From: Phycisphaeraceae bacterium
Lineage (GTDB): Bacteria; Planctomycetota; Phycisphaerae; Phycisphaerales; UBA1924
NCBI GenBank assembly: GCA_020639155.1
Contig: JACKHF010000001.1
Location: 1,963,889 to 2,027,888, forward strand
Direction: 5' to 3'
DNA length: 64,000 bases
Positions 31,207 through 58,600 of the stretch are shown one piece after another. A program made the position numbers and the translations under genes. Positions within the stretch are counted from its first letter, which is position 1. Each line of letters starts with the position of its first letter. The notes below the pieces were generated by a model. That model did no database searches, had not been told where the DNA came from, and was given only the letters and a program-made list of their open reading frames with translations.

Positions 31207-31211
31207 GCAGA

Positions 31212-34731: not shown

Positions 34732-34740
34732 CGTCTTTGA

Positions 34741-35293: not shown

Positions 35294-35776
35294 TTAATAC
35301 GCGTTGTACTTGGTGCCGTCCTGATCTGTGTCAGCGTCCGGCGATCCAGCAATAACCTTGCCTGTTGACGCGTCGTACACCCAGCCCGAGGTTGCCGACT
35401 GAGCAGCTTCAACAGCGCTCAAACCCTTGTTTGTTCCGACTGGAAGAGTGGGAATCTCGGTAAGATACGGACCGTAGATTCGACCTGTTGCTGCATCAAA
35501 CGCATCATTTGCATCGGTGCCATCAATCTTTGTGTACTTTGTCATCTGATCGACAAAGCTTGCCAGTGTAGGAAGCCTGCCCTCATGCTCTGCGCGATAG
35601 AGTTCGATTGCGCTGCGGAGCACCTGCAAATCACCGCGAAGCGCAACACCACCTGCGTTGTTCGCACCACGTGACATGCGCGGGATCGCGATAGCTGCGA
35701 TGACGCCAATGATAACGAGCACCACAACGAGTTCGATCAGACTGAATGCTCTGTTCTTGCGAATGCGATGGAACAT
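35294..35776 (-). CDS. Type IV pilin / GspG-like pseudopilin
   Basis: RAFSLIELVVVLVIIGVIAAIAIPRM prepilin leader and N-terminal helix, 160 aa. Confidence 0.7.
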   Translation of the reverse strand: MFHRIRKNRAFSLIELVVVLVIIGVIAAIAIPRMSRGANNAGGVALRGDLQVLRSAIELYRAEHEGRLPTLASFVDQMTKYTKIDGTDANDAFDAATGRIYGPYLTEIPTLPVGTNKGLSAVEAAQSATSGWVYDASTGKVIAGSPDADTDQDGTKYNAY

Positions 35777-35955
35777 GCCACTATCCCCGTATGTAACTCA
35801 TGCGATCGCAGCTGATTTGCTGCTTCGTGGCACAAGCACCTCCTGCTCGTGCTGACGAGAGATACATCGGATCATTTCTGCGGTATATTCAGTCGGTAAC
35901 GCACGAAACTTGTGTTTTTTCAGCAAATGATACCTGTCGCGACTATCCCGCTCGA

Positions 35956-36558
35956 TCATGGGATCGGGTCGAGATACAGCGTTATCACACGGTCTTCGAG
36001 AGCAAAGTGAGCGCTGCGTCCATCGACGTCAAGTAGTGTTGCACCATTGACTTGCTGACCCATCCGGACCGGTTCGCCATTGATCACAGCGTACGGATGA
36101 CCGGAAGCTTCAAGCACTGCTGTCAGATGATGTCGCGCAATAAATGCATTTGCATCATCGGTTTGTTCGTTCTCGGATGTGACATACGCAACCGGTTTCC
36201 ATGCATACGGCATGGAAAATCCGTCTGGTGAAGGTATGTCATTCATGCTGTCAGTGACGGAAGCCAGAGCAGAACCAATCCGATCGTTCAGATCTGATGC
36301 TCTTGATGACTGCAGCTGCAACTGGTCCATGAACGCTGCCTGATCTGCAAGCAACGCGAGATCCAGCCCAGAACCTGTCTCTGAAGCATGTGCCGATGCT
36401 GGCCCCGAGCTGAGGACAGACGATCCCAGAAAAACACGATCAACGAGCAGTGCCCCTGCGCACACCGCGATGATGCCGATCGCACGACGTTGCCTCCGGT
36501 CGATTTTCATACCCACACGGGCAATTTGCTTCAGGTGGATGCAAGCGGTCAGGCGCAA
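35956..36558 (-). CDS. Hypothetical PilP/GspC-like pilus assembly protein
   Basis: Single N-terminal TM and a C-terminal beta-rich segment. It is the gene immediately after pilMNO in the operon. Confidence 0.35.
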   Translation of the reverse strand: MRLTACIHLKQIARVGMKIDRRQRRAIGIIAVCAGALLVDRVFLGSSVLSSGPASAHASETGSGLDLALLADQAAFMDQLQLQSSRASDLNDRIGSALASVTDSMNDIPSPDGFSMPYAWKPVAYVTSENEQTDDANAFIARHHLTAVLEASGHPYAVINGEPVRMGQQVNGATLLDVDGRSAHFALEDRVITLYLDPIP

Positions 36559-37146
36559 CTATCGCGTTGTATGTTCCGGTTGTATGGTGTGAGCAACGTG
36601 CCACGACATGTCGAGCACGATACTGGCTTCACCATCTGAAGCACTCTGGATGCTTTGAAGCGAGAATGTTCGAATACCAACGTCCGGGAATGCGGCATGG
36701 ATAGAACGGACGAACGCGCTGAACGATGCGTATGTTCCTGTCGCTTCAAGTGATATCGGAGCAGTATTATGTTTTTCACCGATAACTGTCTCGCCCGGAG
36801 TCAGCTTATTGATCCGGACTTGTGATGCTTCTGCAAGTTCAGCGATCTCAGCAAAGCGCTGATTCTGGTACTCGATTGTGTGAAGCTGGACAGCTGCCTG
36901 ATCTACTTCGTTCACACTTGTCTGCAACTGGCTTGCGATCCTTGCCTGATTGGTGGCAATAATCTGCTCACGCTCTTTGGCCTCGTGCAGCAACCTGCCG
37001 AGCTCTTCACGTTCGTTCTCCATGTTGATGACTGGAGCAACGCCGAAGACATACCCAGCGGATGTCAAACTGATCACTACAACGAGGCCAATCGAATGGA
37101 TCAGCCACCAGCGTGATTCATGAGCAATGGACTTGCCTCGAAACAT
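36559..37146 (-). CDS. PilO-like type IV pilus assembly protein
   Basis: N-terminal TM, a coiled-coil, a C-terminal alpha/beta domain. Positioned after the PilN-like gene. Confidence 0.5.
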   Translation of the reverse strand: MFRGKSIAHESRWWLIHSIGLVVVISLTSAGYVFGVAPVINMENEREELGRLLHEAKEREQIIATNQARIASQLQTSVNEVDQAAVQLHTIEYQNQRFAEIAELAEASQVRINKLTPGETVIGEKHNTAPISLEATGTYASFSAFVRSIHAAFPDVGIRTFSLQSIQSASDGEASIVLDMSWHVAHTIQPEHTTR

Positions 37147-37149
37147 CGG

Positions 37150-37749
37150 TTATCCCCGCAACTCACACGTGATGGTAAATGTTGATGCGCTGGTGTTCTG
37201 GACCATGCTTCTGCTTGTGCCGTTCAACGTCACGCGCTGGAAGATCCCGCTCTTCTCAAGCTTCAGTACAAATCCTGTAACATCGGTCGGTGCCAGCCCG
37301 GCACCGTCAAGCTCCAGCACATACACATCCTGCGTGCGTGTACTGTTGGCGGCCGTCTCCTTCGATTTGGGGTCGTGTGCTTCGAGCGGATCAACCCGAA
37401 CACCGCGCAGCACAACCCGATCCCCCTTGATTCGTGCCAGATAATCCAGCAGCAGGCTCCAGTCCGGCTGATCACCGATTTCGCGGAGAAGATTCAGCTT
37501 TGCTTCTGCCTGCTTGAGCTGTGCGATCGCATCTTCAAGGCGCTGTGATTCCTTCCTGGCGCTCGCTTCAGTATCGTCGATAGCCTTGCATACGCGGGCC
37601 TGATCGTCCTGTCGATAGGAGTATCCAGCACCTGACACAGATGCGACAACGATGGTGTACGCAATACCAACAGAGATCCAGAACCGTGTGCGAATACGGC
37701 GTTCGCGCGATTCAATGCGAATCTTTGGTACAAGATTGATGCCGCTCAT
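37150..37749 (-). CDS. pilN: PilN-like type IV pilus assembly protein
   Basis: N-terminal INLVP (the INLLP-like PilN motif), a TM and a coiled-coil. Confidence 0.6.
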   Translation of the reverse strand: MSGINLVPKIRIESRERRIRTRFWISVGIAYTIVVASVSGAGYSYRQDDQARVCKAIDDTEASARKESQRLEDAIAQLKQAEAKLNLLREIGDQPDWSLLLDYLARIKGDRVVLRGVRVDPLEAHDPKSKETAANSTRTQDVYVLELDGAGLAPTDVTGFVLKLEKSGIFQRVTLNGTSRSMVQNTSASTFTITCELRG

Positions 37750-38813
37750 GCTTCAAGCTCCACGAGTGCCATACCCAGCGCGGTAATGTACTCATCCGCA
37801 CATCCTGATTTCAGATCAAACCCATCGGCGGAAATGAGATCACATGTACTAACCATCTTCACTTCAACGTCCAGTGCCTGATGGATATGTTGTGCAAACC
37901 CCATGATGTTGCTGCCGCAGCCAATCATGACAACACTGCCGGGACGTGTGTTTGTGATCTGATGTGTTGCATATCCGAACGCACTGCGCAGATCGTCTGT
38001 TAGCATTCTTGTATGCGTGTTCACAAGAGGTTTGATCTCCGATTTCCATATCCGCTGAGATACGGGGTCCGCGCTTTCCTCCGGCGGATGCATCAGCAGA
38101 TAACGTGCTGCATCGATGTCAACACCCATGCGGCTTGCGATAATGCGAGACTGCCTGTCAAGCCCTTTCTCAGGCATCGCGCGTTCGTACACAACAATCC
38201 CGTCGTGCACAAAGGTGAGCCGAGCAATCGACCACCGAAGGTCAACAATCGCATGGACCAGCGTGCTGTCGAGATCGAGTCTGCCACACGCGCGCACATC
38301 TGCCCAGGATTCTGTGTCTGCTCTTACGACGTCCAACCCACAGATCTCAAACTGATCAAGCATTTCGTTCAGTGGATCGATGATGCATGCGACAGCAACA
38401 ACGCTCGATCGTTCACGTGCTCGGCGTGAATGTGGCAGCGACCAGCATCGGGATTCAAAGCTGCCCTGTTCAAGACTGTGCAAGCGAGCCATTTCCATTG
38501 AGGCGAGACGCTCGATCGGTGCGCCAGATCCTTGTGGTGGGAGATCAAGCATATCGACTTTGAGCATCTCGCGGGGCAGCGCGATGCTGACACGTCTGCC
38601 ATTCAACCCCCAACGGTCGAACGCACGCGCGAGATCGGCAATATCTGATTCTGACGGTATTGGGCCGTCCGATCGTCTCGGTATAACTCCGCAGCCGGAC
38701 ACGAATGTTCTGCGAGTGCCAGATGCGACCTGCACAACGCGGATGCGTTCGCGTCCGATGTGGACACCGACTGGCGAGACAGCTTTAACGAGTGTTCTCT
38801 GCATGGGTGTCAC
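37746..38813 (-). CDS. pilM: PilM-like actin-fold pilus assembly ATPase-like protein
   Basis: 355 aa, actin/FtsA-like fold signatures. Its stop overlaps the pilN start. Confidence 0.6.
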   Translation of the reverse strand: MTPMQRTLVKAVSPVGVHIGRERIRVVQVASGTRRTFVSGCGVIPRRSDGPIPSESDIADLARAFDRWGLNGRRVSIALPREMLKVDMLDLPPQGSGAPIERLASMEMARLHSLEQGSFESRCWSLPHSRRARERSSVVAVACIIDPLNEMLDQFEICGLDVVRADTESWADVRACGRLDLDSTLVHAIVDLRWSIARLTFVHDGIVVYERAMPEKGLDRQSRIIASRMGVDIDAARYLLMHPPEESADPVSQRIWKSEIKPLVNTHTRMLTDDLRSAFGYATHQITNTRPGSVVMIGCGSNIMGFAQHIHQALDVEVKMVSTCDLISADGFDLKSGCADEYITALGMALVELEA

Positions 38814-40024
38814 ACCATCCGTGTCATGTCAAACAGAGGAAGGAACAGACTCATCGCCATGGAGCCGACAAGTATGCCCATTGCGATCAGAATTAACGGC
38901 TCAAGAACAGACGTGACTGAACGCACCTGCGCATCACTCTCTTCATCAAGGATGTCTGCAACGCTGAGCAGCGAAGGACCGAGCTCGCCTGCGGTTTCAC
39001 CCGATCGCACCGCTTCACAGAATGATTCATTGACAAGCCGGCTCTTGCAAAAAGCATCGCTGAGCGGATCGCCCTGCGTGACAGCTTCGGTCGCTTTGTC
39101 GAGCAGAGCGCGGTAGTGATAGTTTCCGAACGATGCTTTGACGAGCTGCGTTGCTTCGTTGATCGGTATCTTGTTCTGCACAAGCACTCCGAGCACACGC
39201 GCAAGCCGGGCAGTGGACACGTGCCTGACAACGCGACCCAGGATGGGGACATGCACCGCGAGCGTCTGGATTGTCCGCTTTGCGTTCTGTGTGCGGTACC
39301 ACAACGAGACTGTAACCACACATGTGATAATTGTACCGACCAGAATAAAGAAGTGGGTACGGGCGGTCTCGCTCAGCCACATCACAAATGTTGTGCTCGG
39401 TGGAAGCGTCACACGCAGTGATTTAAAGAGAGAGTCAAACCGAGGGATGACCAGCAGCAACATCAGAATAAGAACAGTCACGCACACGACAACCAGCAGC
39501 ATTGGATAGATAGCTGCACTGACGATCGATCGGCGCAGCTGGACCTGCTTGTGAATGAGCTTGCTGATTCTGCCCATCATGTCCTTCAACCTGCCCGTCG
39601 CTTCGCCCGCATGCACAAGGCTGATGACAACAGGATCGAAGTACTTCTTGTGCTGGCGCATGGATTCTGAGAGTGGTTGCCCGCGCTCGACACGCTCGCG
39701 TATGTCTGAAACAGTTCGCTTCCAAGTATCATCACGGGCTTGGCGCTCGCACGATTCGAGTGCATCTGTCACGGTCGCACCTGCACTGAGCAGCACGAAC
39801 ATATTTCGTGTGAAGGAGAGCACCAGGTTGCTTGTATTGCGCCCGAATGGGAGACGCTTCATGACCTTTTTCAGGTCCTTGCCCTGCTCGCCTTCCTCGT
39901 GGATGGTCGTAACAAACGTGCCCTTCTTGCGGAGCAGCTCGGTACCGTCATTTATGGTGTTGGCTTCGATGACGCCTGCGCACGCAGCGCCGTCACGGTC
40001 AAAGCCTTTGTAGACAAGTTTCAT
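38810..40024 (-). CDS. Type II secretion system F family / PilC platform protein
   Basis: Duplicated GspF domain with three TM segments, 404 aa. Confidence 0.8.
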   Translation of the reverse strand: MKLVYKGFDRDGAACAGVIEANTINDGTELLRKKGTFVTTIHEEGEQGKDLKKVMKRLPFGRNTSNLVLSFTRNMFVLLSAGATVTDALESCERQARDDTWKRTVSDIRERVERGQPLSESMRQHKKYFDPVVISLVHAGEATGRLKDMMGRISKLIHKQVQLRRSIVSAAIYPMLLVVVCVTVLILMLLLVIPRFDSLFKSLRVTLPPSTTFVMWLSETARTHFFILVGTIITCVVTVSLWYRTQNAKRTIQTLAVHVPILGRVVRHVSTARLARVLGVLVQNKIPINEATQLVKASFGNYHYRALLDKATEAVTQGDPLSDAFCKSRLVNESFCEAVRSGETAGELGPSLLSVADILDEESDAQVRSVTSVLEPLILIAMGILVGSMAMSLFLPLFDMTRMV

Positions 40025-41787
40025 GCGGCCCTCCCGAGTGTCTCAGTGGGCATGTCCGTGTCGGCATCGTCGATATCGGAATCATGGCTGTGGGTGACGC
40101 GCAGCACTTCCTCAAGGCTTGTCTTTCCAGCACGGGCAAGCGCGATGCCTTCCTCACGCAGTGTCAGGCAGCCCTCATCACTCATCTGCAGACGCAGTGT
40201 GTGTGTCGGTGCGGATTTGTGGATCATGCGCCGTAGTGTTGGGGTGACTTCCATCACCTCGTAGATGCCAGATCGACCCTTGAAGCCGGTATCGTGGCAG
40301 TGCTGGCAGCCCAGTCCCTTCTGGAACGGCTGGCGCAAGTCGTTGCTGATGCGAGCTTCTTCCAGCACGTGATCTTCGGGGAAGTACTTTGTCCTGCATT
40401 GTCCGCAGACGGTACGCGCGAGTCGTTGGGCAACGGCACCGTTCAGAGCGGTTGAGACAAGGTACGGCTCAATGCCCATGTCAAGCAGACGAGCAACAGA
40501 TCCTGGTGCGTCGTTGGTGTGCAGAGTTGCGAGCACGAGGTGACCCGTGAGTGATGCTCTGACTGCAACGCGCGCAGTCTCTTCATCGCGAACCTCGCCG
40601 ATCATCACCACGTCCGGATCCTGACGAAGAATGCTCCGCAGTGCGGACGCGAACGTCATCCCAATGGAATCATGCACCTGTACCTGATTTACCATGTCGA
40701 GCTGATACTCAACAGGATCTTCGACGGTGACGATATTTCGCTCGGGTGTTTGGATGAGTTCCAGTGCCGAGTAGAGTGTTGTGGTCTTGCCCGATCCGGT
40801 TGGTCCTGTGACAAGAATCATGCCGTGAGGCTGATGAAGCATGTGCTTGAATCGTTCGAGCGCTTCGGCGCGGAAACCGAGGTCTTCCAGGCGCACACGA
40901 AGATTCTCCTTGTCGAGAATGCGCACCACGACCTTCTCACCGAGCAGTGTCGGAATGCTCGACACGCGAAGATCGATCTCGCGACCCTCAGCAACGATGC
41001 GCACACGCCCGGCTTGTGGAAGACGTTTTTCCGCAATGTCCATCTTTCCGATGACCTTCACGCGCGAGATAATTGCTGGGTGCAGACCGATCGGTGGACG
41101 CATCAGCTCGCGGAGCGTGCCGTCAATGCGATATCTGATGCGCGTGCCACGCTTGTCAGGTTCGATGTGGATATCGCTTGCGCCATCGCGGATTGCTGTC
41201 AGCAGCGCGACGTTCACGAGATTGACGATGGGACTCCCATCGATCATGTTCTCGAGTTCGGGGATCGTCTCGTCCTCGATCGACTCGCGCTCAATGATTG
41301 AGACGTCCGAATCGACGAGTTGCGTCATAAACCCGTCGACGTCAACTTTGCCGCCAGCGTACTTCTTGATGTACTCACGAATGTCCGGCTCAAGCGCAAG
41401 CACGGGTCTGATCTCAAGCTCTGTCAGACTGCGGAGTCGATCAATTGTGTGCAGCGACTGTGGTTCAGCCATTGCAACAGTGAGTGTGCCATGCACGCGA
41501 AACAGTGGGAGTGCGCGGAGTTCCAGAGCCTCCTGCTCACCAATCAGTTCGAGTAGTGCTGGATCGATAAGACCGTGGCGCAGCACGCATCCGGGCACAC
41601 CGATACGCGCAGAAAGCGTCTGCTCGAGCACAGCTCGTGTAATGATGCCCTGCTCGAGGAGAATCTCGCCGAGGAGCTTGCCGGTGGCGCGCTGGATAGC
41701 GAGTGCATCGCGCACCTGGTTCTCGGTCACCTGCCCCGCTTGAACGAGCAGCTCACCAATACGTAATCTCGGCGCTTCGTGCATCAA
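40021..41787 (-). CDS. GspE/PilB-family type II/IV secretion ATPase
   Basis: Walker A (VTGPTGSGKTT), Asp and His boxes, a tetracysteine C-terminus (CGQC...CQHC), 588 aa. Confidence 0.9.
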   Translation of the reverse strand: MMHEAPRLRIGELLVQAGQVTENQVRDALAIQRATGKLLGEILLEQGIITRAVLEQTLSARIGVPGCVLRHGLIDPALLELIGEQEALELRALPLFRVHGTLTVAMAEPQSLHTIDRLRSLTELEIRPVLALEPDIREYIKKYAGGKVDVDGFMTQLVDSDVSIIERESIEDETIPELENMIDGSPIVNLVNVALLTAIRDGASDIHIEPDKRGTRIRYRIDGTLRELMRPPIGLHPAIISRVKVIGKMDIAEKRLPQAGRVRIVAEGREIDLRVSSIPTLLGEKVVVRILDKENLRVRLEDLGFRAEALERFKHMLHQPHGMILVTGPTGSGKTTTLYSALELIQTPERNIVTVEDPVEYQLDMVNQVQVHDSIGMTFASALRSILRQDPDVVMIGEVRDEETARVAVRASLTGHLVLATLHTNDAPGSVARLLDMGIEPYLVSTALNGAVAQRLARTVCGQCRTKYFPEDHVLEEARISNDLRQPFQKGLGCQHCHDTGFKGRSGIYEVMEVTPTLRRMIHKSAPTHTLRLQMSDEGCLTLREEGIALARAGKTSLEEVLRVTHSHDSDIDDADTDMPTETLGRAA

Positions 41788-42119
41788 AGGAAACTCCTTG
41801 CTGCAGCGCTTGCATCCTCAAAGAGTTCAAAGTGGGGTCCGATGCCGGTAAGCACGAACACCTCGCGCACTGTGTCCGTTAATGCGCACAAGCGGAGAGA
41901 GTGTCCGGCGTCGGAAAAGTCGTTCGACACCTCCACAAGAATCTCAAGCCCGCGACTGTCAATAAATGGCACAGCTGACAGATCGATTGCAAGCCGCCCC
42001 AGCGTTTGCCTGCCAGCAACGAGGCACTGGTCCTTCAGGTCCTCCGCATCCTGCTGCGTGATCGAACCCTTTGGCTTCAGTACTGTCACCGCACCGTGGA
42101 TGTGGCGTTCGACGTCCAT
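41784..42119 (-). CDS. STAS domain protein (anti-sigma-factor antagonist-like)
   Basis: 111 aa SpoIIAA-like sequence (VLKPKGSI...FIDSRGLEILV). Its stop overlaps the pilB start. Confidence 0.7.
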   Translation of the reverse strand: MDVERHIHGAVTVLKPKGSITQQDAEDLKDQCLVAGRQTLGRLAIDLSAVPFIDSRGLEILVEVSNDFSDAGHSLRLCALTDTVREVFVLTGIGPHFELFEDASAAARSFL

Positions 42120-42167
42120 GTCTACCTCTTTGCGATTGCCCTTTCCTTTGTTTGTTCTTTCAGCCTG

Positions 42168-44024
42168 TTACGCTGCGTGTGCAAGCACGGGCAGTATGAT
42201 CTTGAACGTGCTCCCCTCATTGAGAATGGAATCCGCTGTGATCTCCCCGCCATGCAGGCGCACCACCTCACGGGCAAGGGCAAGTCCGAGCCCCGATCCC
42301 GTGGTGGTTGCAACACGATCATCCTGTGCCCGGTAGAACCGATCGAACACGCGCGGAAGCATGTCCTCTGAAATTCCAATGCCCGTATCGGTTACGCTAA
42401 TCGAGAGCTGGCTTGTTTCAGCCTGGACATCAACAGTGACGGTGCCGCCATCCGGTGTATATTTGAGCGCGTTGCCCACGAGGTTATGGATAGCCATGGC
42501 AAGCTTGTCGCGCTCACCCAGTAGTATGGGGAGCTTGGGCGGCAGGTTGAATGTCAGTGTGATGTTCTTGTCGCGAGCCTGTGCTTCGTAGTCAGCTTCG
42601 ATCTCATGGAGAAGCTGCTCAGTCCGCACGTCATCTCGATGCAGCGTGTATGAGCCGGAATCCATCTCGCTGACAGAGAGCATGTCATTGACGATGCGCT
42701 CGAGTCTTCGAGATTCCCGGTTGATGACATTGACAGCCTGATCGCGAGCCGACTGGTCCATCGTGTGATCTTCGAGCATTGACTCCGCGTAGAGTCTGAT
42801 GTTTGTCAGCGGGGTGCGGAGATCGTGCGTTGCCTGCGCAACGAATACATCGCGTGACTGCTGTGCAATGCGTTGCTGTGTGACATCTTCTATCAGAGCG
42901 ACGACAAGCGATGGGTTCGATTGTGGTATGCGACGCGCCACAACGCGCAGCACTCCCTTTGTTCCATCGTTGTCCTGCTCTATTTCCAGCGTTGAATGCA
43001 CGCGATCACCGCTGATCAATCCCTGGATTGCTTCTACAAGCTGGTATGGAGCATTGTTCTGTGCGAGTGTAATCAGATTGTCGGACTTTGATGGCAGTCC
43101 GAGCAGGTTCAGACCCGCCCCGTTGGATAGCTGCACATGCATGTCGGCATCAATCACGATCAGACCGATCGGAAGTGCGCTGCACGCACTGATCGCAACC
43201 CGGTTCTCAACGGCCGCGCTGGACAAGGCTCCTTGCGCGCGCTGCGCGATATCGTTTTCGTCAAGCCCCTGCAATCGACGAACCAGCATGTTCCACGCTG
43301 TCGCCTCTGCACCGAATCCGGGATGGATGCGAAGGGCATCTGGTGTAAGGCCCTGATCGTGAATTGCAAGCAGGGCGCTGCGGAGGGCAGAAACACCACG
43401 TTGATTCTGACGAACAAGACGCTGTGTCCATGCCAGTGTGAGAGCCGCTGCAGCAGCAAGAACCCACACGCCAGCGATCATCGTGCTGGGCGACTGGTTC
43501 GGAGGAGCTATGGTGTCAACACCAAGCCGAACCGTTCCACGTTCAGGCACAATAAAGGACATTGATGCGTTGACGCCATCAGGAATTGCGGAAGTGGATA
43601 CCGGCGTCATCGGACTCCGTTCCCATGTCTCTGGCAACTGCTGAAGTATCGATTCAGAACTTGAGTTTGCGATGATGCTGCCGTCTGGTAAAGTCACACG
43701 AACTTCTGCAATCCATTCGCTTTGTGCTGCAGCTTTCACGACTCGTGAAACACTCTCAATGTCCTTTGCCATGAGGAGTGGCTGGAGCGCACTTGCAACA
43801 CTCGAAACAGCGCCGCGGGCTTCCTCATCAAGATGTTCGAGCACATGGGACTTGTATGTCTGCGCAATCCAGAGGCTGGATCCAAGTGCAGCAACAACCA
43901 CAATAATTGGACTCACAAATGGAATGAGCACACGTTTGAGATCGAACCAACCAACGTGCGCACGCACACTTCGGCGGTGTCCGTCTGAACGCGGCTCATG
44001 TCTATTCTCGGAATGTGTCTGCAC
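42168..44024 (-). CDS. Sensor histidine kinase (TM, HAMP/PAS-like, HisKA, HATPase_c)
   Basis: H-box ATHDLRTPL, N/G1/G2 boxes (NLVGNALKYT, DTGIGI, GSGLGLA). Confidence 0.8.
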   Translation of the reverse strand: MQTHSENRHEPRSDGHRRSVRAHVGWFDLKRVLIPFVSPIIVVVAALGSSLWIAQTYKSHVLEHLDEEARGAVSSVASALQPLLMAKDIESVSRVVKAAAQSEWIAEVRVTLPDGSIIANSSSESILQQLPETWERSPMTPVSTSAIPDGVNASMSFIVPERGTVRLGVDTIAPPNQSPSTMIAGVWVLAAAAALTLAWTQRLVRQNQRGVSALRSALLAIHDQGLTPDALRIHPGFGAEATAWNMLVRRLQGLDENDIAQRAQGALSSAAVENRVAISACSALPIGLIVIDADMHVQLSNGAGLNLLGLPSKSDNLITLAQNNAPYQLVEAIQGLISGDRVHSTLEIEQDNDGTKGVLRVVARRIPQSNPSLVVALIEDVTQQRIAQQSRDVFVAQATHDLRTPLTNIRLYAESMLEDHTMDQSARDQAVNVINRESRRLERIVNDMLSVSEMDSGSYTLHRDDVRTEQLLHEIEADYEAQARDKNITLTFNLPPKLPILLGERDKLAMAIHNLVGNALKYTPDGGTVTVDVQAETSQLSISVTDTGIGISEDMLPRVFDRFYRAQDDRVATTTGSGLGLALAREVVRLHGGEITADSILNEGSTFKIILPVLAHAA

Positions 44025-44232
44025 GAAGACTCTCCGCAGGTGGCATAACCAGTATTACCCTACCCTATCGACTCAGGACGGCATCATCTGAAGTTCCAGT
44101 CATCAGTTATAAAGCGACCTGCGAATGTGAATCGGGTGAGATTCTTCACGTTCAGACTGATTTGATGCGAGGAACTGACCGATCGGGCACATAGGTAGGG
44201 TTTGAAAGCCGACAAAGCTCGGCGTTCTGTGC

Positions 44233-44679
44233 GTGGAGAAGCTGCTGTTGGAGCAGAAAAAAACCATTTTGGTCGTTGATGACGAGCCTCATCTGACATA
44301 TATGCTGGCGCATCGGCTGCGCTCAGAGAGTGTCAATGTGCTCGAGCAGAATAACGGGCAGGATGGATACAAGACGGCCATCAATCTGATTCCCGATCTT
44401 GTGATTACCGATTATCAGATGCCACGGATGTCTGGTATTGCGATGTGCCAGGCTCTCAAGGCCGATGCCAGAACTGCACACGTGCCTGTGCTCATGATTA
44501 CCGGTCGGGGGCATCGTGTCACCCGTGACGACCTGGAATGCACAAACGTGCGCGAGCTCATGTCAAAGCCGTTCAGTTTTAATGAGCTGTTATCTAAGGT
44601 GTTCGAGTTGATTCAGGTGCATCCCGAGGATGCATCTGGGCAGACTTCGGAGGATGCAGAGAAGAAAACACGGATGTAA
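44233..44679 (+). CDS. Single-domain response regulator (CheY-like receiver)
   Basis: VVDDEP ... ITDYQMPRMSG ... K receiver residues. Confidence 0.75.
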   Translation: MEKLLLEQKKTILVVDDEPHLTYMLAHRLRSESVNVLEQNNGQDGYKTAINLIPDLVITDYQMPRMSGIAMCQALKADARTAHVPVLMITGRGHRVTRDDLECTNVRELMSKPFSFNELLSKVFELIQVHPEDASGQTSEDAEKKTRM

Positions 44680-44706
44680 TACGCCGAAGACAAGGAGTGC
44701 GGCACA

Positions 44707-46455
44707 ATGCCGACGGCTGATGGAAAGACGGGCAGCAATCATCCCGCACTGGATGTGCGCACGCGCTGTCTTTCGCTCGGTGTTCCTGTATGGGTCTTTG
44801 ATGAATCGGGTCATCAAGTCCTTCCTCCTTCAGACGATACCTCTGTTGCAAACCAGCTTGAATCAACTTTTCCCAGTGAACTTGTCGCGTCAGTCGTTGA
44901 TTCATCCGGCACAGAACACACCACCTGTTCGTGTGATCGCATTCCCGCGAGCGTCGTGAATGATGCAATCGGTGAAGATGCTGGTGATCTGCGGTTCCTG
45001 ATACGCAGGGTGCCAGTGCCGCACGCACCGTGGGATTTCTGGACACTCATCGCGCTTGTTATTGACGAAGTTGCAGTGAACACAGTTCCAGTTTGCAGGT
45101 CTCTCGTCGATTCGGGCGCATTGCAGATACTTGATGCTCGATCTATACACTGGATTCAGCAGACGATTGACTGGATGACGGACGACCGTGTGCATGTGTC
45201 AAACGACAAGGTGCTCTTGGATCGGTTCAGCACCGAGTTGATGATCAGCTTCGAACATGTCGATCTCTTGTTCCGATTTGCTCGCCTGCTCAACTGCGCA
45301 GAAGAACCCGATGAGATTATCCGCGTCCTGATCCATCAGATGCTGGCATTGTTGCCGTTTGACTGGATCTCCGTCGGCTTTGCAAACAAGGACTCGATCC
45401 TTCCACAACTCGCTGGTGCACACATTATCGCCGGTAAACCACCGTGCGATTTTCAACAGCTTTCAAGCGCCCTTGCGCAAGCGATCAATGATTGCAAGGG
45501 TGACTCATGGACAAACGTGCTCGACGTGGGCGAGCATCCGCTCAGCGATCTGGTGCAATCTCAGATTGTCGCAGAACCGATCTCGCACGACAGCAAGCCA
45601 ATCGGTATGCTGATCGCGGGCGGGAAGACCGGCCCGGATCCGGATGCGCACAGTCAGGAACTTCAGTTCCTTGATGCGACATCAGCATTCCTTGGCGTGT
45701 TCCACGCGAGTGCAGCCCGGTTCCATGAGCAACGCATCGCGTTTTACGGCATGGTCAAGGCAATGACGGCTGCGATTGATGCGAAGGACAGATACACCCG
45801 AGGCCACTCGGAGCGTGTTGCCCATCTCGGACGCGAACTTGCGATCGCTGCGGGATTGTCTGAGCAGCAAGTTGAAGAGGTGTATATCGCAGGCTTGCTC
45901 CATGACGTCGGCAAGATCGGCGTGCCCGAAGCAGTGCTTTGCAAGAACGGCAGGCTGACCGATGAAGAGTTCCTGCAAATCAAGAAGCACCCCGAAACCG
46001 GCGTGAACATCCTCAAGGATATTCCATCGCTTGAGGCAATGATGCCAGGTGTGCTGCACCACCATGAGCGTTGGGACGGTCGTGGGTATCCGTACAATCT
46101 TTCCGGCGATTCCATTCCGCTGTATGGACGCATCCTTGCTGTCGCGGACGCGTTTGATGCGATGAGTTCGACCAGATCATACAGGCCGGCACTCCCACGC
46201 GAAACCGTGCTCAGCGAGATGCACAAGTGTGCGGGCACCCAGTTCGATCCTCGCCTTGCAATGCTGTTTGTCGAGCTTGATCTGTCTGAGTTTGATGCAA
46301 TGCTCAGGTTACATGCTGAGGATGCGCCGAACTTTGTCGCGATTGTTGACGACGAGAGTTTGGATCAGAGCCTTGACAAGACACTCGGAAGCGCCTCATC
46401 AAAGAGTGAGGATGAGAGCAGCGAGAAGAAATCGCAAGAACGATCTGCCGCGTAA
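44707..46455 (+). CDS. HD-GYP domain c-di-GMP phosphodiesterase with an N-terminal GAF-like sensor region
   Basis: HDVGKIGVPEAVL ... HHERWDGRGYP (HD and GYP motifs). Confidence 0.8.
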   Translation: MPTADGKTGSNHPALDVRTRCLSLGVPVWVFDESGHQVLPPSDDTSVANQLESTFPSELVASVVDSSGTEHTTCSCDRIPASVVNDAIGEDAGDLRFLIRRVPVPHAPWDFWTLIALVIDEVAVNTVPVCRSLVDSGALQILDARSIHWIQQTIDWMTDDRVHVSNDKVLLDRFSTELMISFEHVDLLFRFARLLNCAEEPDEIIRVLIHQMLALLPFDWISVGFANKDSILPQLAGAHIIAGKPPCDFQQLSSALAQAINDCKGDSWTNVLDVGEHPLSDLVQSQIVAEPISHDSKPIGMLIAGGKTGPDPDAHSQELQFLDATSAFLGVFHASAARFHEQRIAFYGMVKAMTAAIDAKDRYTRGHSERVAHLGRELAIAAGLSEQQVEEVYIAGLLHDVGKIGVPEAVLCKNGRLTDEEFLQIKKHPETGVNILKDIPSLEAMMPGVLHHHERWDGRGYPYNLSGDSIPLYGRILAVADAFDAMSSTRSYRPALPRETVLSEMHKCAGTQFDPRLAMLFVELDLSEFDAMLRLHAEDAPNFVAIVDDESLDQSLDKTLGSASSKSEDESSEKKSQERSAA

Positions 46456-46463
46456 CAGGCCGC

Positions 46464-47126
46464 TTGATTGGATCAGTCATGATGGCTTCCAGAAGACAGA
46501 ACAAAAGAGCTCGTGCGTTCACACTGATCGAGTTGACGATCGCTATGACACTGGCAGCGCTGCTGATGGGGTCTATTGTCTCTGTCATTGTTGTATCAAG
46601 TAAGTCGCTTGATGTTGCCACTTCGCAGGCGGTTACTGGCAACGTATCAGAAGCAATGCTCAGAGTAACCAGCGATCTTCGTCAGGCAAAATCGTTCACT
46701 ATTGTGACTTCAACATCCGTCACGTTCACTGTTCCCGATCGCACGGGCGATGGGATTGATGACAAGATAGCCTACGTTTGGTCCGGAACAAAGGGTGATC
46801 CGCTCACGTTCCAGCTCAACTCCAGTAGCGCAACAACAGTGATCGAGGATGTCCGCGATCTCTCATTCGAGTATCTCCTGGGAAAGGATGTTGCATGGGC
46901 TGGTGCATCATCGCCAGATCCCGGTATCACGATCAACGTTGGTGGGGTCGGCGTTACTCTTGGCAATGGCAATGGCAATGGCAATGGCAATGGCAATGGC
47001 AATGGCAATGGCAATGGCAATGGCAATGGCAATGGCAATGGCAATGGCAGCAGTAGCAGCAGTAGCAGCAGTAGCAGTAGTAGCAGTAGTAGCAGTAGTA
47101 GCAGTAGTAGCAGTAGCAGCAAGTGA
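46464..47126 (+). CDS. Pseudopilin-like prepilin-type protein with a C-terminal (Gly-Asn)14-(Ser)~25 tail
   Basis: RAFTLIELTIAMTLAALLMGSIVSV prepilin N-terminus. The C-terminus is encoded by microsatellite DNA. Confidence 0.65.
   Translation: MIGSVMMASRRQNKRARAFTLIELTIAMTLAALLMGSIVSVIVVSSKSLDVATSQAVTGNVSEAMLRVTSDLRQAKSFTIVTSTSVTFTVPDRTGDGIDDKIAYVWSGTKGDPLTFQLNSSSATTVIEDVRDLSFEYLLGKDVAWAGASSPDPGITINVGGVGVTLGNGNGNGNGNGNGNGNGNGNGNGNGNGNGSSSSSSSSSSSSSSSSSSSSSSSSK
46962..47120 (+). repeat. Simple sequence repeat: (GGCAAT)x14 followed by about 25 AGC/AGT triplets
   Basis: Counted directly: GGCAAT units from 46962 to 47045, then AGCAGT/AGCAGC units to about 47120, all inside the CDS. Confidence 0.9.
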
Positions 47127-47138
47127 TAACACAACTAT

Positions 47139-47774
47139 ATGGTTTTAATGTCACACAATGTAGCTTGCCGTGCGTTCACGATCGTCGAAGTCGTGATGTC
47201 GCTGTTGATTGTTTCACTGGTGCTTCTCGCAGGATTGCGCACCGCTGCTGCAACTGGCAGTGAGGCTCGCATCCGACGTGAGCGCGATATTGGCCGATTG
47301 CTTGCCGACCAGCTTCTTGCTGAGATCATGGCCCTTCCGTCGGAAGACCCGAACGAAACGCCGGTATTCGGTATGGAACTGGATGAAACGGGGACATCCA
47401 GACGCGACGTTCTCGACGACATCGACGATTACAACGGCTGGACCGAATCGCCCGTGCGAGCAGCAGACGGCACAATCATCGCCCAGTACTCGCAGTGGCG
47501 CAGGGATGTGGAAGTTGACTGGATCAGCACGATCGTGCCAATCGCTGTGCCAACAGACACAAGACTGAAGGGTGTCACCGTGACAGTCTACGCACCATCC
47601 GGCAAGTCGTACACACGCACCGCGCTTCGCTCGATGCACGAATATCGCGACAGGTCCGATGACGAACAGGTCGTGCGTATTGGCGTGTCGCTCACCGCAG
47701 GTGTGGATGGAAGGAATATCACCGAGACGGCGGCATCTGTTGTGGTTCTGGAAAACTCTCCCGAGGGCAACTGA
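47139..47774 (+). CDS. Pseudopilin-like prepilin-type protein
   Basis: RAFTIVEVVMSLLIVSLVLLAGL N-terminal prepilin motif. Confidence 0.6.
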   Translation: MVLMSHNVACRAFTIVEVVMSLLIVSLVLLAGLRTAAATGSEARIRRERDIGRLLADQLLAEIMALPSEDPNETPVFGMELDETGTSRRDVLDDIDDYNGWTESPVRAADGTIIAQYSQWRRDVEVDWISTIVPIAVPTDTRLKGVTVTVYAPSGKSYTRTALRSMHEYRDRSDDEQVVRIGVSLTAGVDGRNITETAASVVVLENSPEGN

Positions 47775-47782
47775 GCAGATCA

Positions 47783-49144
47783 ATGATTACCAACGGTTCC
47801 AAATCCTTCTCTCACCCACGCAGAGGCGCTGCATATGTGCTTGTGCTTGGTGCGAGTCTGCTCGTGTTCATCATCGGTGTCAGTGCGCTGGCAGCGATGA
47901 CCGTGACATCTGAAGGGATTGATCAACTCAACGACGCGCAATCGGCTGAGCAGCTTGCCCCCTCGGGCATTCAGTGGGCGATGACCAAGCTCTCCTCAAA
48001 TACCAACTGGCGCAGCGTGTATTCCAACAACACATATGGTGGTTCGATCGGGTTTGGCGGTGGTACTTTCAAATGGAAGGTGCGTGATCTGAGCGACAGC
48101 AATCTGGCAGACGATGCAGGCGATGAGGTGCAGATCGTTTCGCAGGCAACGGTGGGAGATGCAGTCCGCACATATGCAGCGACCTACGTCCATCCGAACT
48201 CGCCGCTCGAACTTCTCATGAGCAACATCCATGCGGGTGCCGATATCGACATCAAGAGTGGCGCAACACTCCAACTCTTTGAAGATGACGAACTGATCAG
48301 CGCCAATGGTTCATGGAAGAACGATGGCCGTCTCGAAGGAAACGCTCGCACAACATCATTGTCCGGTGGTGGCGGATCGGGAACAGCTTCGGGCACAGTG
48401 GTGACCAACGCAAGTACATTAACGATGCCTTCATCCGCGTTTGTTGACCGACTCATTGCTCGTGCGACAACACTCACTTACTCCGGTGATATCGATACCA
48501 AACTCATTGCCCCGGGGTTGAACGAGTATGACCTCGATGCACCGACCGGTTCGAATATCTGGTATCTCAACACGGGTGGTCAGGATATCACAATCAAAAA
48601 CTCGCGCATCCAGGGAACGCTCATCATCAACGTTGGGAACTCCAAGTCGGTCCGAATTACAAATCGTGTGCTCATCGAGCCGGACTCGCCGTCCATGCCA
48701 TCGCTGATTGTGATAGGAAATCTTGAGATTCAAACCGATGGTCCGTCGCTCGGGCTCGCTGCACTCCTCGCGTTACCTCTTGGTGATCTACGAACCACAC
48801 TCGCGGCAACATCAAAACCATTGTCAGAGAGCACACTGTCGCACAACTTCAATCCACCCACAGCACCCTACCAAGGGGGATCGGATACCGATAAGGCTGA
48901 TCGATATCCGTGCATGATGAACGGGTTGATATATGCAACCAGCGATGTCGTCTTCAGCAATACCAACTGGGTTCTTGGGTTAGTGATAGCTGGACAGGAT
49001 GTGGATGTTGACGGCGGCACAACAGCAGTGTTCCACGACACAATCTACTACGACAACCCCCCCGATGGCATGGTGGAGTACGACACATCAACATTTGTGC
49101 TGATGAACGGCACGTGGGGTCGAATCGGCGCAAATGACGAATAA
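47783..49144 (+). CDS. Hypothetical pilus-associated protein (GspK-like position), N-terminal TM
   Basis: AAYVLVLGASLLVFIIGVSALAA hydrophobic N-terminus, a beta-rich Gly/Thr/Asn-rich body. It follows two pseudopilin genes. Confidence 0.4.
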   Translation: MITNGSKSFSHPRRGAAYVLVLGASLLVFIIGVSALAAMTVTSEGIDQLNDAQSAEQLAPSGIQWAMTKLSSNTNWRSVYSNNTYGGSIGFGGGTFKWKVRDLSDSNLADDAGDEVQIVSQATVGDAVRTYAATYVHPNSPLELLMSNIHAGADIDIKSGATLQLFEDDELISANGSWKNDGRLEGNARTTSLSGGGGSGTASGTVVTNASTLTMPSSAFVDRLIARATTLTYSGDIDTKLIAPGLNEYDLDAPTGSNIWYLNTGGQDITIKNSRIQGTLIINVGNSKSVRITNRVLIEPDSPSMPSLIVIGNLEIQTDGPSLGLAALLALPLGDLRTTLAATSKPLSESTLSHNFNPPTAPYQGGSDTDKADRYPCMMNGLIYATSDVVFSNTNWVLGLVIAGQDVDVDGGTTAVFHDTIYYDNPPDGMVEYDTSTFVLMNGTWGRIGANDE

Positions 49145-49249
49145 CTATTCTCGATGATCAGTGCCGTGTCGAGATATCGGATTCAATATATTAAGACCGC
49201 ATCAAGTACAAGCTAAATCCCGACGATACAAGGAGTAACTCCGGGGTCT

Positions 49250-50410
49250 TTGTACATGAAGCATAACGTGGGTAATGCGATGGTCTTCCCTGCGAACGCA
49301 CAGGTTCGCCATCATCTTATGGAGATGCTCGGAGATCGTGCGAGATCGGTCCCGAATAAGGAAAAACGCGAGCACTTTCGATACCCCCTCCCTTCGATCA
49401 TTGAGAAGGCAGAGATCCAGCACCCGGGTGGGAGTAAGGTTCATGCTGAAGTGTTGGTGTACAACCTCAGCTCTGGTGGTATCGGCTTTGTCTACACAGG
49501 GTACCTTCACAGAAGTACAGAGATCACAATCACATTGCACACGTTGCGCGGCGAACTTCGCGAGTTGAGCGGCAAGGTCGCATGGTGCGCATTGTTGACG
49601 CGCCAGTTTCATGCTGTTGGAATGCAGTGCGATGAGAAAAGTGATCCAAGAGACTATATTGAACCATCGATTATCGCCGTCCACAATGTTGAGGATGAGT
49701 CAGCACGGCGAAAAGCTCTCCGAGGTCGCGTTCTTCTTGTTGAAGATGACAAGATGGAAGCGAATCTTGTGAAAATGCTGCTCTCAGACACCTCATTGCG
49801 CGTCGATGTGGCATCAGATACGGGCGAGGCACTCGATTGTCTTCGCACGGAATCCTTCGACATTGTGCTGGCCGATTCAGTGCTGCATCGGGATACGCGA
49901 GTTGATCAGTATGTGCCAAGGATGAGAGACGAAGGGTTTACGGGACCGATTGTCCTCTTTCTCCAACAGCGAGACAATATTGACCCGAATGGCAGTTTGC
50001 CTGGCGCATGCACAGATGTTGTTGCAAAGCCACTGAACCAAGACGAGTTGATCGCAGTTATCGAGAGGGCTTTGCGCCACTCCCATGATCCAACCTGCAG
50101 CACTGATCTCATCTATTCAACAATGAAGGATGCGTTGAAGTTCACTTCATGGATTGCAGAATACATCGAAGTCGTGCGTAAAAAAGCGAAACTCATCGAA
50201 GAGGCCCTTCGTTCAGAGAATGTTGAGCTGGCAATGGATGAATGCTCCGCTATCTGCGCAACGGGTGTGAGCTACGGATTTGAGATTCTGTCAGAAGCAG
50301 CCCAGGAAACGATTACAGCTCTGAAATCATCTGCTTCATGCACCGAGTCCGCCGCAGAAATACGCAAGCTGCTGCGAGTAATAAAGCGACTGAGTATTCA
50401 GGGATACTAA
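49250..50410 (+). CDS. PilZ domain - receiver domain protein with a C-terminal helical (HPt-like, His-less) domain
   Basis: RxxxR (REHFR) and DxSxGG-like (NLSSGGIGF) PilZ motifs. Receiver: LLVEDD ... IVLADSV ... VVAKP. Confidence 0.6.
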   Translation: MYMKHNVGNAMVFPANAQVRHHLMEMLGDRARSVPNKEKREHFRYPLPSIIEKAEIQHPGGSKVHAEVLVYNLSSGGIGFVYTGYLHRSTEITITLHTLRGELRELSGKVAWCALLTRQFHAVGMQCDEKSDPRDYIEPSIIAVHNVEDESARRKALRGRVLLVEDDKMEANLVKMLLSDTSLRVDVASDTGEALDCLRTESFDIVLADSVLHRDTRVDQYVPRMRDEGFTGPIVLFLQQRDNIDPNGSLPGACTDVVAKPLNQDELIAVIERALRHSHDPTCSTDLIYSTMKDALKFTSWIAEYIEVVRKKAKLIEEALRSENVELAMDECSAICATGVSYGFEILSEAAQETITALKSSASCTESAAEIRKLLRVIKRLSIQGY

Positions 50411-55672: not shown

Positions 55673-58600
55673 TTATCCTCTGCCGGGAACGTTGCGAGGC
55701 CGTAACTGCTCAACCTTCTGCGCTGCCCGCTGCGCCCACTCGGTATCGCCGAATCGATCGACGATAGACTGGTACTGCTCGCGAGCCTGATCGAATCGAT
55801 TCAGCTTCTCGAAGCACCGCCCCGCTTCGTATAGCGCAGCGGCGCTCCATTCCGGGTACGCATGGAGGATGTCCACACGGATGAACTCAGTGACTGCCTC
55901 GTCGAGTTTGTCGATCGCGAACAGGCACTCGCCAATCTGGAACTGCGCGCGAGCAGCGGTGAGGCCCTCGTGCCCGTCAACAACGCGCCGATACGCCTTG
56001 ATCGCATCCTCGTGCTGGCCCTGATGCTCCTTTGCCCAGCCAATCCCGAACTGCGCTTTGAACCACATCTCGTGGTCTGGGTACAACTTCAGAAATGTGG
56101 TGTATGACGTTTCGCTGTTGGACCACTGCTCGGTCTCGCCCTGAGCTTCGCCCAAACGGATGTATGCAACAGCCGCATTCTCGTGCTCGCCATGGTCCTT
56201 GATCAGACGTTGGAGATGTGGAATGGCATCGCCGTGGCGATTCAGGCGCATCAGCGCCTCGCCGCAAAGCAGTTCGGCCGATGCCATGAGCTTGCTCTGC
56301 GGATACTGCTTCCAGAACTGGTCGAGCGCGTTGGCGACGATATCAAACTTCTCGAGTTTGTGCCCGGTAACGCCGCGACGGTACGCTGCTTGCTCGCGCA
56401 CCGATTCGGGGATCTTTGTCTGATCCCGGCGGATGAGCTCATCAAGCTGGTTCAGCGTTGGCAACGCCTGCTCAAACTGGTTCGCATCCATCTGGATCGA
56501 TGCAAGATCGAGCAGCGCGTGCGCACGCAGACGAGGCTCGATGTTGGCATCATTCAGCAATGTACGCAGCGCACTTGCCGACTCGTCCGATTTCTTGAGC
56601 GCTCGCAGACTCCATGCTCGCTCATACGCGAGATTCGCGCGCGTCGGCTCGTCAAGCTGCGCATCGTTCATTGCAAGAAGCGCATCGACTTCGTTGACAG
56701 CAGCTTCAGATTTACCCGAGCGTGAGAGTGCGATCGATCTGCTGATCCGAGCGCGAATACCAAGTGCTCCGCCCGTCTTTGTGACCGGTTCAAGCGTTGC
56801 TGCAGCTTGCGCAAACTCACCTCGTGCAAGGAGGGCCTCGCCTTGCTGGAGCTGCGCCTCGGTGGCAAGTTCAATTGGCCCGTTCTCAGCTGCACGAGCA
56901 AACCACTCCGTTGCAGCTTCAAGGTTGCCCTTGCGCTGTTCGATTGAGCCGAGGTGACGCATCGCAAACGCAGCAAACCGCGACCCCTCGTCCGCATCAA
57001 CAACGGCGAGCATGGCTTTTTCCGCCTGCTCGTCGTTGCCCATGTCGATGAGCGCCTGCCCACGTTCGAACATGGCTTGCAATGTGTGGACGCTCTCATC
57101 CATTGCAATGATCGCATCAAAGCACTGGATCGCTTCTCCAGGGCGATTCTGGCGCACACGCGAAAGTCCGAGCTTCAGCAGCGCGTCGTCAGCACCGAAC
57201 GCGTTTGGATCTGCTTCGAGATAGTCCTTGAAATGCCGCTCGGCGTTCGGCCACTCGCTGCGCGCAAACGCGATGTCGCCGAGTGCGCGCAAAGCAGAGC
57301 GGAACTCGGGCTTGGTTGATGCGCCTCTGGTAATACGGGCGAGTTCCTGCACAGCCTGATCATCACGATTCTGGCGATGATGCGCCATGCCAATACGGAA
57401 ATGCGCTGTGTCACCCCGATCGTCATTTGGGAACTCATTCAGCAGCTTTGCATATCCCGCGATCGCATCATCCCATCGACCCGCGAGAAAATCCGCTTCA
57501 GCACCGACAACGATCACATCTGCCATCAACCGATGGTTTGCGAACTTGCCCGCGTACTCACTCGCGAGCGACTTCGCACGCTCGTATCCCTCGCGTGAGA
57601 GTTCGGACGATGCTTCGAGGTACATCGCTTCCGGAACAAGACGATGCTCCGGGAAGGACCGGCGATAGGCGCCAGCGGCATCGATTGCACCGTCCACGTC
57701 ACCAGCACGTGAAAGAGCAACCGCACGGTCGTACATCATCTCGGGTTTGAGCGAGCTGTCAGGGTAGTTCTCGATCGCCTTCTCAAGCGTGTCGGCTGCA
57801 CGACTCGGCTCATCAAGGCGCATCTCGCACTTCGCAATCCAGTACATCGCGTCGTCGTGCAGTGCCTTTTCCTGTGTTTTCAGGACGCGCTCAAAGTCCT
57901 GCTTTGCAGGCGCGAAGCGGTCGTTATCGAGATGGATGCGTCCTCGCATGAAGACTGCGCCGGGTGCTGCCGTTGACGACCCGAACTGCTCGATCACCTC
58001 CTGCGCCAGTGTCTCGGCTTCCGCAAGATTCCCCTTGTCATGAAGAAGTTGCGATAGAGACAGCTTTGCTTGCGGCAAGAACGACTCGACACCGCGTGCA
58101 ATGGCGTCGCGGTACGCACGGATTGCATCATCAGGACGGTTGACTGCCTGCAGCGCACGAGCGCGAAGGAATGTGGCCTGATCAGCAATGGGACCTGCAT
58201 TCTCACGCTTGAGCACCTCTTCGAGATGTGGAAGCGATTCCGATTCCTTGTGCTGTGCCATCAGCGCCATGGAGTGAAACAGTTCTGCGCGTGATCGCTT
58301 TGCGCTGTCAGGGAAATCCCGCTCAAGCCGCGTCGCCGCTGCGATCGCTTCGTCGAGGTCGTTCGTACGATATCGGGATTCTGCGAGCATCGATAATGCA
58401 TCATCAAGCGACGCATGATCGGGGAACCGCTCGATCAGCACTGCAAACCGGTCACCCGCTTCCTTGTACTTGCCGAGAAGCACGAAGCTGTGACCGCGGA
58501 GGAGCTCTGCATCACCAGCGAACTCAAAGGTTGGTGTAGTTGCTGGCATTTCCAGCATGGCAGCAGCATCTTCGTACTGCTGCAGTCGGTAGTAGCACAC

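Follow-up and report, generated by a model that had tools for sequence, protein, structure and literature searches.

A slippage-prone coding microsatellite at the C-terminus of a predicted GspJ-like minor pilin from an uncultured wastewater planctomycete

Bacteria seldom have long perfect microsatellites, which are best known from host-adapted pathogens, where they drive phase variation. Length-variable repeats that stay in frame are familiar from the Ser-Asp repeat stalks of staphylococci and the collagen-like repeats of Bacillus anthracis BclA. Here, we consider a 64-kb window (the whole stretch of DNA that was analysed, 64,000 nucleotides of contig JACKHF010000001.1, assembly GCA_020639155.1) from an uncultured bacterium of the Phycisphaeraceae, in which a hexanucleotide array and a run of serine codons form the 3' end of a gene encoding a predicted minor pilin (Table 1). 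Among the closest described systems, the PE_PGRS proteins of Mycobacterium tuberculosis carry length-variable Gly-Gly-Asn/Gly-Gly-Ala repeats (PMC3903279, PMC3319526), Helicobacter pylori sabA (PMC2715451) and the simple sequence repeats (SSRs) of meningococci (PMC4085013) are phase-variable contingency loci, polyserine linkers are found in secreted carbohydrate-active enzymes of Teredinibacter, Saccharophagus and Cellvibrio (PMC2699552), and modular type IV pilins are represented in Streptococcus sanguinis by PilB, which bears a vWA module, and PilC, which bears a lectin module (Raynaud et al. 2021, PMC8179133). That the in-frame repeats of surface proteins vary in length by slipped-strand mispairing is thus known; what is new at the present locus is the carrier, a minor pilin from a large unannotated planctomycete family, the composition of the repeat, a dipeptide followed by a homopolymer, and the environmental setting of an organism that is not a pathogen. 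A literature search returned no paper describing Gly-Asn dipeptide repeats on pilins and no paper mentioning these assemblies.

The hexanucleotide array is perfect over its 84 nt (14.8 copies with 100% matches according to Tandem Repeats Finder, TRF) and lies, in frame, exactly where the initial annotation of the sequence had placed it. It is joined by a glycine codon to a serine block made of 9-nt sub-repeats, GCAGCAGTA three times and GCAGTAGTA four times; this AGC/AGT run is where it was described, with 24 codons and not the approximately 25 first counted. Both arrays are in frame with the open reading frame (ORF) of the pilin, the translation of which ends ...GVGVTL(GN)14 G S24 K. Other ORFs that cross the array in different frames or on the reverse strand (poly-Leu/Pro, poly-Ala/Met and the like) were rejected as artefacts of the repeat, because homologues exist for the pilin frame only. 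The size of the array is far above chance expectation: the second-longest perfect SSR of the window has 12 nt and the longest one in 597 kb from 62 related Planctomycetota loci has 21 nt, so that the earlier remark on an unusually long perfect SSR is borne out, whereas the accompanying description of the chromosome as GC-rich is only moderately true (G+C of the window, 56.3%).

Codon usage is also peculiar within the two arrays. Across 32 genes of the window, AAT accounts for 34% of the Asn codons and AGY triplets for 28% of the Ser codons, compared with 14/14 in the array and 24/24 in the serine block, respectively. As only the minor Asn codon and only AGY serine codons are used, a recent expansion at the DNA level is indicated, and the pattern reads as the signature of unit duplication rather than of codon-by-codon selection. 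When folded as single-stranded DNA, the array shows a weak hairpin tendency (z = -2.1) that is unnecessary for explaining slippage.

Direct evidence for a change in copy number comes from the comparison of assemblies. Contig JAWKTF010000002.1 of the Phycisphaerales metagenome-assembled genome (MAG) GCA_041401945.1 matches the window exactly. The alignment of GCA_020427515.1 to positions 28810..50036 of the window (21,215 nt, 0 mismatches) contains one gap of 12 nt, which falls in the array: there are 12 units, (GGCAAT)12, in GCA_020427515.1 (L068/L070) versus 14 in the window. This gap being the only difference, the repeat is the sole variable site of the aligned 21 kb. The serine block is the same in both full-length assemblies, down to its AGC/AGT pattern, and the 12-unit allele keeps a complete ORF, in agreement with the initial proposal that slippage would change the length of the tail and not the frame. 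Since near-identical genomes differ in their number of units, the array is actively mutating; it is a slippage hotspot, and the mechanism is an ordinary one. The neighbouring proteins, the 208-aa one encoded next to the pilin among them, are identical in three NCBI MAGs (MCA..., MCB... with locus tags H6815_*, and MEZ...), annotated as Phycisphaeraceae or Phycisphaerales, of which GCA_041401945.1 alone has the exact 215-aa allele on record; the H6815_* MAG is without it and would thus have a different one.

A second case of a tail that varies in length and not in frame was found in another branch of the family. Locus L043 has the ending (GN)11 H, its GGY-AAY units varying at synonymous third positions only, and is 99.7-99.8% identical over 2.46 kb to metagenome contig L081, which encodes the homologue P0020. 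The sole indel between them measures 42 nt, that is seven GN units, giving (GN)11 in one and (GN)4 in the other, and this pair of contigs is a second, independent strain-level length polymorphism.

The age of the expansion can be approached through P0001 (contig L001), the sole close homologue of the window pilin (64% identity), which is encoded in a largely syntenic locus. P0001 ends ...GITINVLGGTVSASKKSK (...TVSASKKSK), without any repeat. The ending AGC-AAG-TGA is common to both genes, from which it follows that the arrays were inserted immediately before the ancestral end, and the expansion at the DNA level postdates the split from this orthologue. The comparison with orthologues, which the initial annotation had set as a possible refutation, therefore cut both ways: no repeat exists in the nearest orthologue, as for a recent expansion, and near-identical genomes differ in copy number.

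The protein that carries the tail has the features of a prepilin, as was first proposed. Its leader, MMASRRQNKRARA, runs up to the predicted cleavage site, after which comes FTLIE, the junction reading RARA/FTLIELTIAM (the stroke marks the cleavage), with Ala at position -1 where Gly is usual. It passes the cut-off of Pfam PF07963 N_methyl (25.8 bits for a cut-off of 21.2) and falls slightly under that of TIGR02532 (15.5 for 16.3). In the AlphaFold (AF2) model, for which 77 family sequences were used as input, a helix spans residues 16-68 and strands lie within residues 72-122, the predicted local distance difference test score (pLDDT) being 94-98 at residues 61-130; the long N-terminal helix followed by an antiparallel beta-sheet is the trait of the type IV pilin superfamily. 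The tail, by its composition of 54 Gly, Asn and Ser residues on a pilin module of about 130 residues, is nearly uncharged and has no domain match in Pfam, and no confident structure can be given to it because pLDDT is 52-58 from residue 141 to the C-terminus. The closest structural matches of the pilin are 3nje_A, 3ci0_J and 2ret_B, with Foldseek values below significance, and the curated GspJ/PilW models of NCBIfam gave sub-threshold scores only (for example PRK10557, 16.8 bits for a cut-off of 120); as neither was significant, "GspJ-like" describes here a fold and not a family assignment. A search with the sequence profile against the PDB gave weak matches to the N-terminal helices of pilins only, a PHROGs search weak matches driven by low complexity only, and exact look-ups in the protein collection showed the 215-, 214-, 220- and 211-aa and truncated forms of the pilin to be all absent from it.

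Using the pilin module alone as query in an index-free search, we collected 1,960 cluster representatives at E <=1e-3, 1,146 at E <=1e-10 and a single one, P0001, at E <=1e-30. All 62 genome matches obtained with a trimmed 7-sequence alignment (A3) belong to the Planctomycetota (62/62, Phycisphaerae and Planctomycetia), at 44% identity or less, and peptide-pattern scans of genome and metagenome contigs with the single protein found nothing. Family members share a module of about 135 residues, with the motif VTFTVPDRTGDG...RYAWSG.GDPL, and are wholly different past it, the median extension being about 195 residues among the collected matches. Few of these extensions are recognisable (Laminin_G_3/ConA-like, CBM_4_9 or DUF4082 domains), and a common type, which ends in TIAIAP, was modelled with confidence as an all-beta domain (P0002) and has no close relative in the PDB. 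Judged from these sequences, the C-terminus of the family is a grafting site, on which lectin-like or other all-beta modules as well as tails of low complexity are found, and a tail of this kind occupies the usual position of the folded module in the window protein. Short members of the family have unrelated low-complexity endings, Lys/Asp-rich in the case of KDKDKGKKDKDKDKDDKGGKKKGHH (L046, 6420..6519) and GKGKGKGKKK in that of P0048, from which the family C-terminus seems to be generally permissive for repeats.

Gly-Asn tails are not restricted to the window protein. In a first homology search, P0014, P0025 and P0026 were found to end in GKGNGNNNGNGNGKN and close variants, P0020 in (GN)4 H, P0022 in GNGHGNGNGNN and P0021 in GNGNGNGHHGGH; this search was seeded by common 5-residue words and is for this reason biased towards G/N tails. 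When the pilin modules are arranged by neighbour joining, Gly-Asn tails fall at three separate spots of the tree; the window pilin has a tail-less sister, and the P0014 clade one with a Lys/Asp-rich tail. Poly-Ser runs in L040 and L042 were considered and rejected as tails, as they are spurious alternative frames over pilin helices. The clade of P0014, P0020, P0022 and L043 has in addition a conserved Trp/His/Arg-rich segment, KIWHGRxRRxxWGxxWDHxGxAWGHYDYKPG, before the GN array (L002 6560..6729, L005 3480..3618, L043 6380..6585 and L081 1780..1887), and P0115 ends in a similar tail rich in Trp, Arg, Lys and His.

With moderate confidence, we propose that the tail is the product of a young, slippage-prone compound coding microsatellite and is displayed at the exposed tip of a filament as a flexible hydrophilic extension, the length of which would be tuned by slippage; the functional step is the weakest of this proposal. 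The copy number of the array shifts by steps of 6 nt between genomes that are otherwise identical, so that the length of the tail varies while the frame stays constant. GspJ-type minor pilins are part of the tip complex, and this position, together with the folded modules grafted exactly there, on the C-terminus, in most relatives, makes the exterior of the filament tip the most likely location of the tail. The pilus-tip decoration suggested in the initial annotation is in this sense a reasonable hypothesis, given the GspJ-like fold and the C-terminal modules of relatives. At the tip, the tail might behave as a flexible hydrophilic spacer or "brush" that alters adhesion to surfaces or cells, in the manner of non-specific adhesion or aggregation, with slippage as the tuner of its length and with no role for the tail as a specific ligand-binding domain.

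Several points weigh against this proposal. The orthologue has no tail and GN tails are found in a small minority of family members, which means that the tail is clearly dispensable for the family. The GN-tailed matches of the first search were favoured by its word seeding, and none of the 149 new representatives of an unbiased search has a G/N tail (0/149). The comparison of 12 with 14 units rests on assemblies and not on reads, and the source organism is uncultured.

The main rival explanation, which we consider a real possibility while giving it less credit, is that the tail arose neutrally, as the by-product of runaway slippage tolerated by a free, unconstrained C-terminus, and that it is without function and drifts in length. 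The absence of a repeat in the nearest orthologue and the rarity of GN tails in the family fit this explanation, as does a perfect repeat in non-preferred codons, which is what a recent mutational event would leave, and the KD-rich (L046) and GK-rich (P0048) endings suggest that any hydrophilic end is tolerated. However, a single family gained or retained G/N-rich tails at three separate places, no other ORF with (GN) of at least 3 units is present in the 597 kb of surrounding Planctomycetota DNA, and the P0014/P0020/P0022/L043 clade keeps a G/N-rich ending across several clusters more than 10% apart, the variation in L043 being synonymous only.

It could also be argued that the array is real and that the difference between 12 and 14 units is an artefact of assembly or polishing. 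All data come from MAG assemblies, and each of the five short-read contigs that were recovered here, out of three Logan runs and one ENA assembly, stops within the GGCAAT or Ser arrays, at the end of L069 and at the starts of L072, L073, L074 and L080 (window ~46990 and ~47060-47120), which indicates that the array is hard to assemble and makes of this locus a systematic contig-end in metagenome assemblies. Such breaks are to be expected wherever a perfect repeat exceeds the k-mer of the assembler and therefore say nothing on heterogeneity. On the other hand, the difference is of exactly two units in an 84-nt array that can be spanned by 150-nt or long reads, the rest of the 21.2 kb is identical, the harder Ser block included, and the 42-nt difference between L043 and L081 is an independent case from another lineage. 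An artefact is unlikely in view of this exact two-unit gap within 21 identical kb and of the second case.

In Pseudomonas (TfpO/PilO) and Neisseria (PglL), type IV pilins carry O-glycans on serines at the C-terminus or on the surface, and Gram-positive adhesins bear many glycans on their serine-rich repeats. By analogy to these pilins and adhesins only, the 24 consecutive serines could make the poly-Ser run, or the whole tail, an acceptor of O-glycans that would decorate the tip of the pilus. This suggestion of the initial annotation is not sustained by the genes of the window, and we consider it quite unlikely: among 50 ORFs scanned with Pfam (nearly all those of at least 150 aa), there is no Wzy_C-type O-oligosaccharyltransferase and no glycosyltransferase linked or dedicated to the pilin, the sole glycosyltransferase being a GT2 enzyme (27861..28718) encoded 18 kb away beside a lipid-A-type LAB_N gene. 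Moreover, the Gly-Asn tails of relatives have no Ser run.

Going further than our proposal, one may imagine that G/N tails are a recurrent, selected "sticky tip" of planctomycete type IV filaments that replaces the lectin-type modules, its length being tuned by slippage, and that acts either by prion-like, polar-zipper self-association between filaments or cells (for example in activated-sludge flocs) or, through spontaneous deamidation of its 14 Asn-Gly dipeptides, as a timer of ageing; this is speculative and we hold it to be improbable. Finally, a classical contingency locus in which the pilin is switched ON and OFF by frameshift, as the presence of a long SSR inside a surface-structure gene would recall from Neisseria, Haemophilus and Helicobacter (PMC2715451, PMC4085013), deserves next to no credence, because units of 6 nt, and of 3 or 9 nt, are all divisible by three and exclude switching by whole-unit slippage, and because the observed 12-nt variant keeps the full ORF. 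Of the contingency behaviour first envisaged, what is left is a hypermutable length polymorphism, which fits the term in its weak sense.

A point in favour of a slippage-tuned tail at a filament tip is the presence of filament machinery and cyclic di-GMP genes in the locus. The gene with the repeat opens a three-gene set that resembles a tip complex, its two partners being weak, sub-threshold matches: the 208-aa protein scores 18.7 bits with TIGR01707 gspI, below the cut-off, and E 0.003 with N_methyl, both weak, and the 453-aa protein 14.5 bits with NF037980 GspK, far under the cut-off. The order of the three pilin-like genes is kept in L001, L002 and L005. The pilin ATG lies 23 nt from the HD-GYP gene and 21 nt separate the pilin from the next gene; from the common strand and this tight spacing, the response regulator and HD-GYP genes probably share one operon with the pilin genes. 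A scan for promoters and terminators around the pilin genes gave no signal above chance. The synteny of the assembly machinery is kept in L001 and L068, and no prepilin peptidase gene was seen within the window. On the basis of its predicted genes, the locus can be described as a type IV filament locus ringed by cyclic di-GMP (c-di-GMP) signalling genes, and the clustering of MshEN, HD-GYP and PilZ domains around the pilus genes suggests that c-di-GMP controls the filament. Both the window and the near-identical MAGs have the PilZ-receiver gene, which is missing in the syntenic L001, where a PD40 gene comes directly next.

Table 1. Coordinates of the pilin gene, its compound repeat and the neighbouring genes (window positions)
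Feature	Position	Strand	Remarks
Type IV filament machinery	34741..41787	-	Two prepilins, PilO, PilN, PilM, T2SS-F, T2SS-E with MshEN (type II secretion system, T2SS; MshEN-bearing ATPase at 40021..41787)
Two further prepilins	34741..35265 and 35294..35776	-	
Response regulator	44233..44679	+	Pfam; upstream of pilin
HD-GYP phosphodiesterase	44707..46455	+	Pfam; directly upstream of pilin; c-di-GMP
Coding sequence of 215-aa GspJ/XcpW-like minor (pseudo)pilin	46479..47126	+	N_methyl prepilin motif
Regions of the pilin	module ~aa 1-130; low-confidence region aa 131-161; low-complexity tail aa 162-215		
Perfect hexanucleotide microsatellite (GGCAAT)14	46962..47045	+	Codes (Gly-Asn)14; variable element
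Single GGC (Gly) codon	47046..47048	+	Bridge between both arrays
24 serine codons	47049..47120	+	12 AGC and 12 AGT, from 9-nt units
Terminal AAG (Lys) and TGA stop	47121..47126	+	Stop at 47124..47126
Second minor pilin, 208 aa, weakly GspI/PilV-like	47148..47774	+	A/FTIVE prepilin motif
453-aa protein, N-terminus weakly GspK-like	47783..49144	+	Candidate third member of the tip set
PilZ and receiver-domain protein	49250..50410	+	Pfam; downstream of the three pilin-like genes; c-di-GMP

Some other features of the window are unrelated to the pilin. A 395-aa protein (20850..22037, minus strand) without a Pfam match is of low complexity, rich in Gln, Glu and Lys, and is encoded inside a BatA-D/MoxR/DUF58/VWA operon (18956..27084); its imperfect 12-15-nt repeats explain the other TRF rows at 21069..21535. 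An imperfect 29-nt tandem duplication (57553..57609; 1.9 copies, 78% matches) lies in the gene of a 1,055-aa TPR protein (55673..58840), and a 329-aa protein (62621..63610, minus strand) has the unusual architecture of TPR repeats with two stretches resembling the C-terminal domain of RNA polymerase alpha. Two DNA methyltransferase genes (9370..10704, minus strand, and 30403..31206, plus strand), one of the D12 class (N6-adenine) and one of N6_N4 type, are present, and no restriction enzyme partner for either of them was recognised among the scanned ORFs.

As a whole, a free-living, uncultured planctomycete from wastewater has a microsatellite that differs in length between otherwise identical genomes and so lengthens or shortens a protein for which the tip of a surface filament is the predicted location, and this case brings to notice a family of GspJ-like minor pilins that is large, unannotated and provided with an evolutionary grafting site at its C-terminus. 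Should the length of the tail affect adhesion or flocculation, the locus would constitute a simple, tunable adhesion device; should it have no effect, the locus would still be a clean marker for strain typing and a known site at which assemblies break.

Compared with the known systems, the pilin is like GspJ/XcpW/EpsJ, from the GspI-GspJ-GspK tip of the T2SS, and like the PilW-class minor pilins of type IVa pili in its class III signal peptide, long N-terminal helix and beta-sheet, and its gene lies beside two that are weakly GspI-like and weakly GspK-like, near those of an ATPase, a platform protein and PilMNO. A Ser at or near the exposed C-terminus is shared with the O-glycosylated pilins (Pseudomonas aeruginosa group I PilA with TfpO, Neisseria PilE with PglL), from which the locus differs in having no O-oligosaccharyltransferase next to the pilin or elsewhere among the scanned ORFs; unlike serine-rich and Ser-Asp repeat glycoproteins, it has in this same set neither dedicated glycosyltransferases nor an accessory Sec system. 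With the polyserine linkers it has in common a long unbroken Ser run on an exported protein, presumably flexible and hydrophilic, but these linkers join two folded domains, whereas here the run is followed by one Lys and the stop, with the next gene 21 nt further on. With contingency loci it shares a hypermutable SSR in a surface-structure gene and slipped-strand mispairing, and it departs from them in that the length of the tail alone changes, without frameshift or ON/OFF switching. The closest parallels for the repeat itself are PE_PGRS proteins, Ser-Asp stalks and BclA, which also have units in multiples of 3 nt, copy numbers that vary between strains, a preserved ORF and an extracellular, Gly/Asn- or Ser-rich product; the present repeat is distinct from these by its location on a pilin, at the extreme C-terminus, by its strict succession of a dipeptide and a homopolymer and by its host, a free-living wastewater planctomycete. 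Lastly, as in modular type IV pilins, the family combines a small N-terminal pilin module with a C-terminal graft that is predicted to be displayed at the tip, and where those pilins carry a folded functional module the window protein carries a tail of 54 residues made by a microsatellite.

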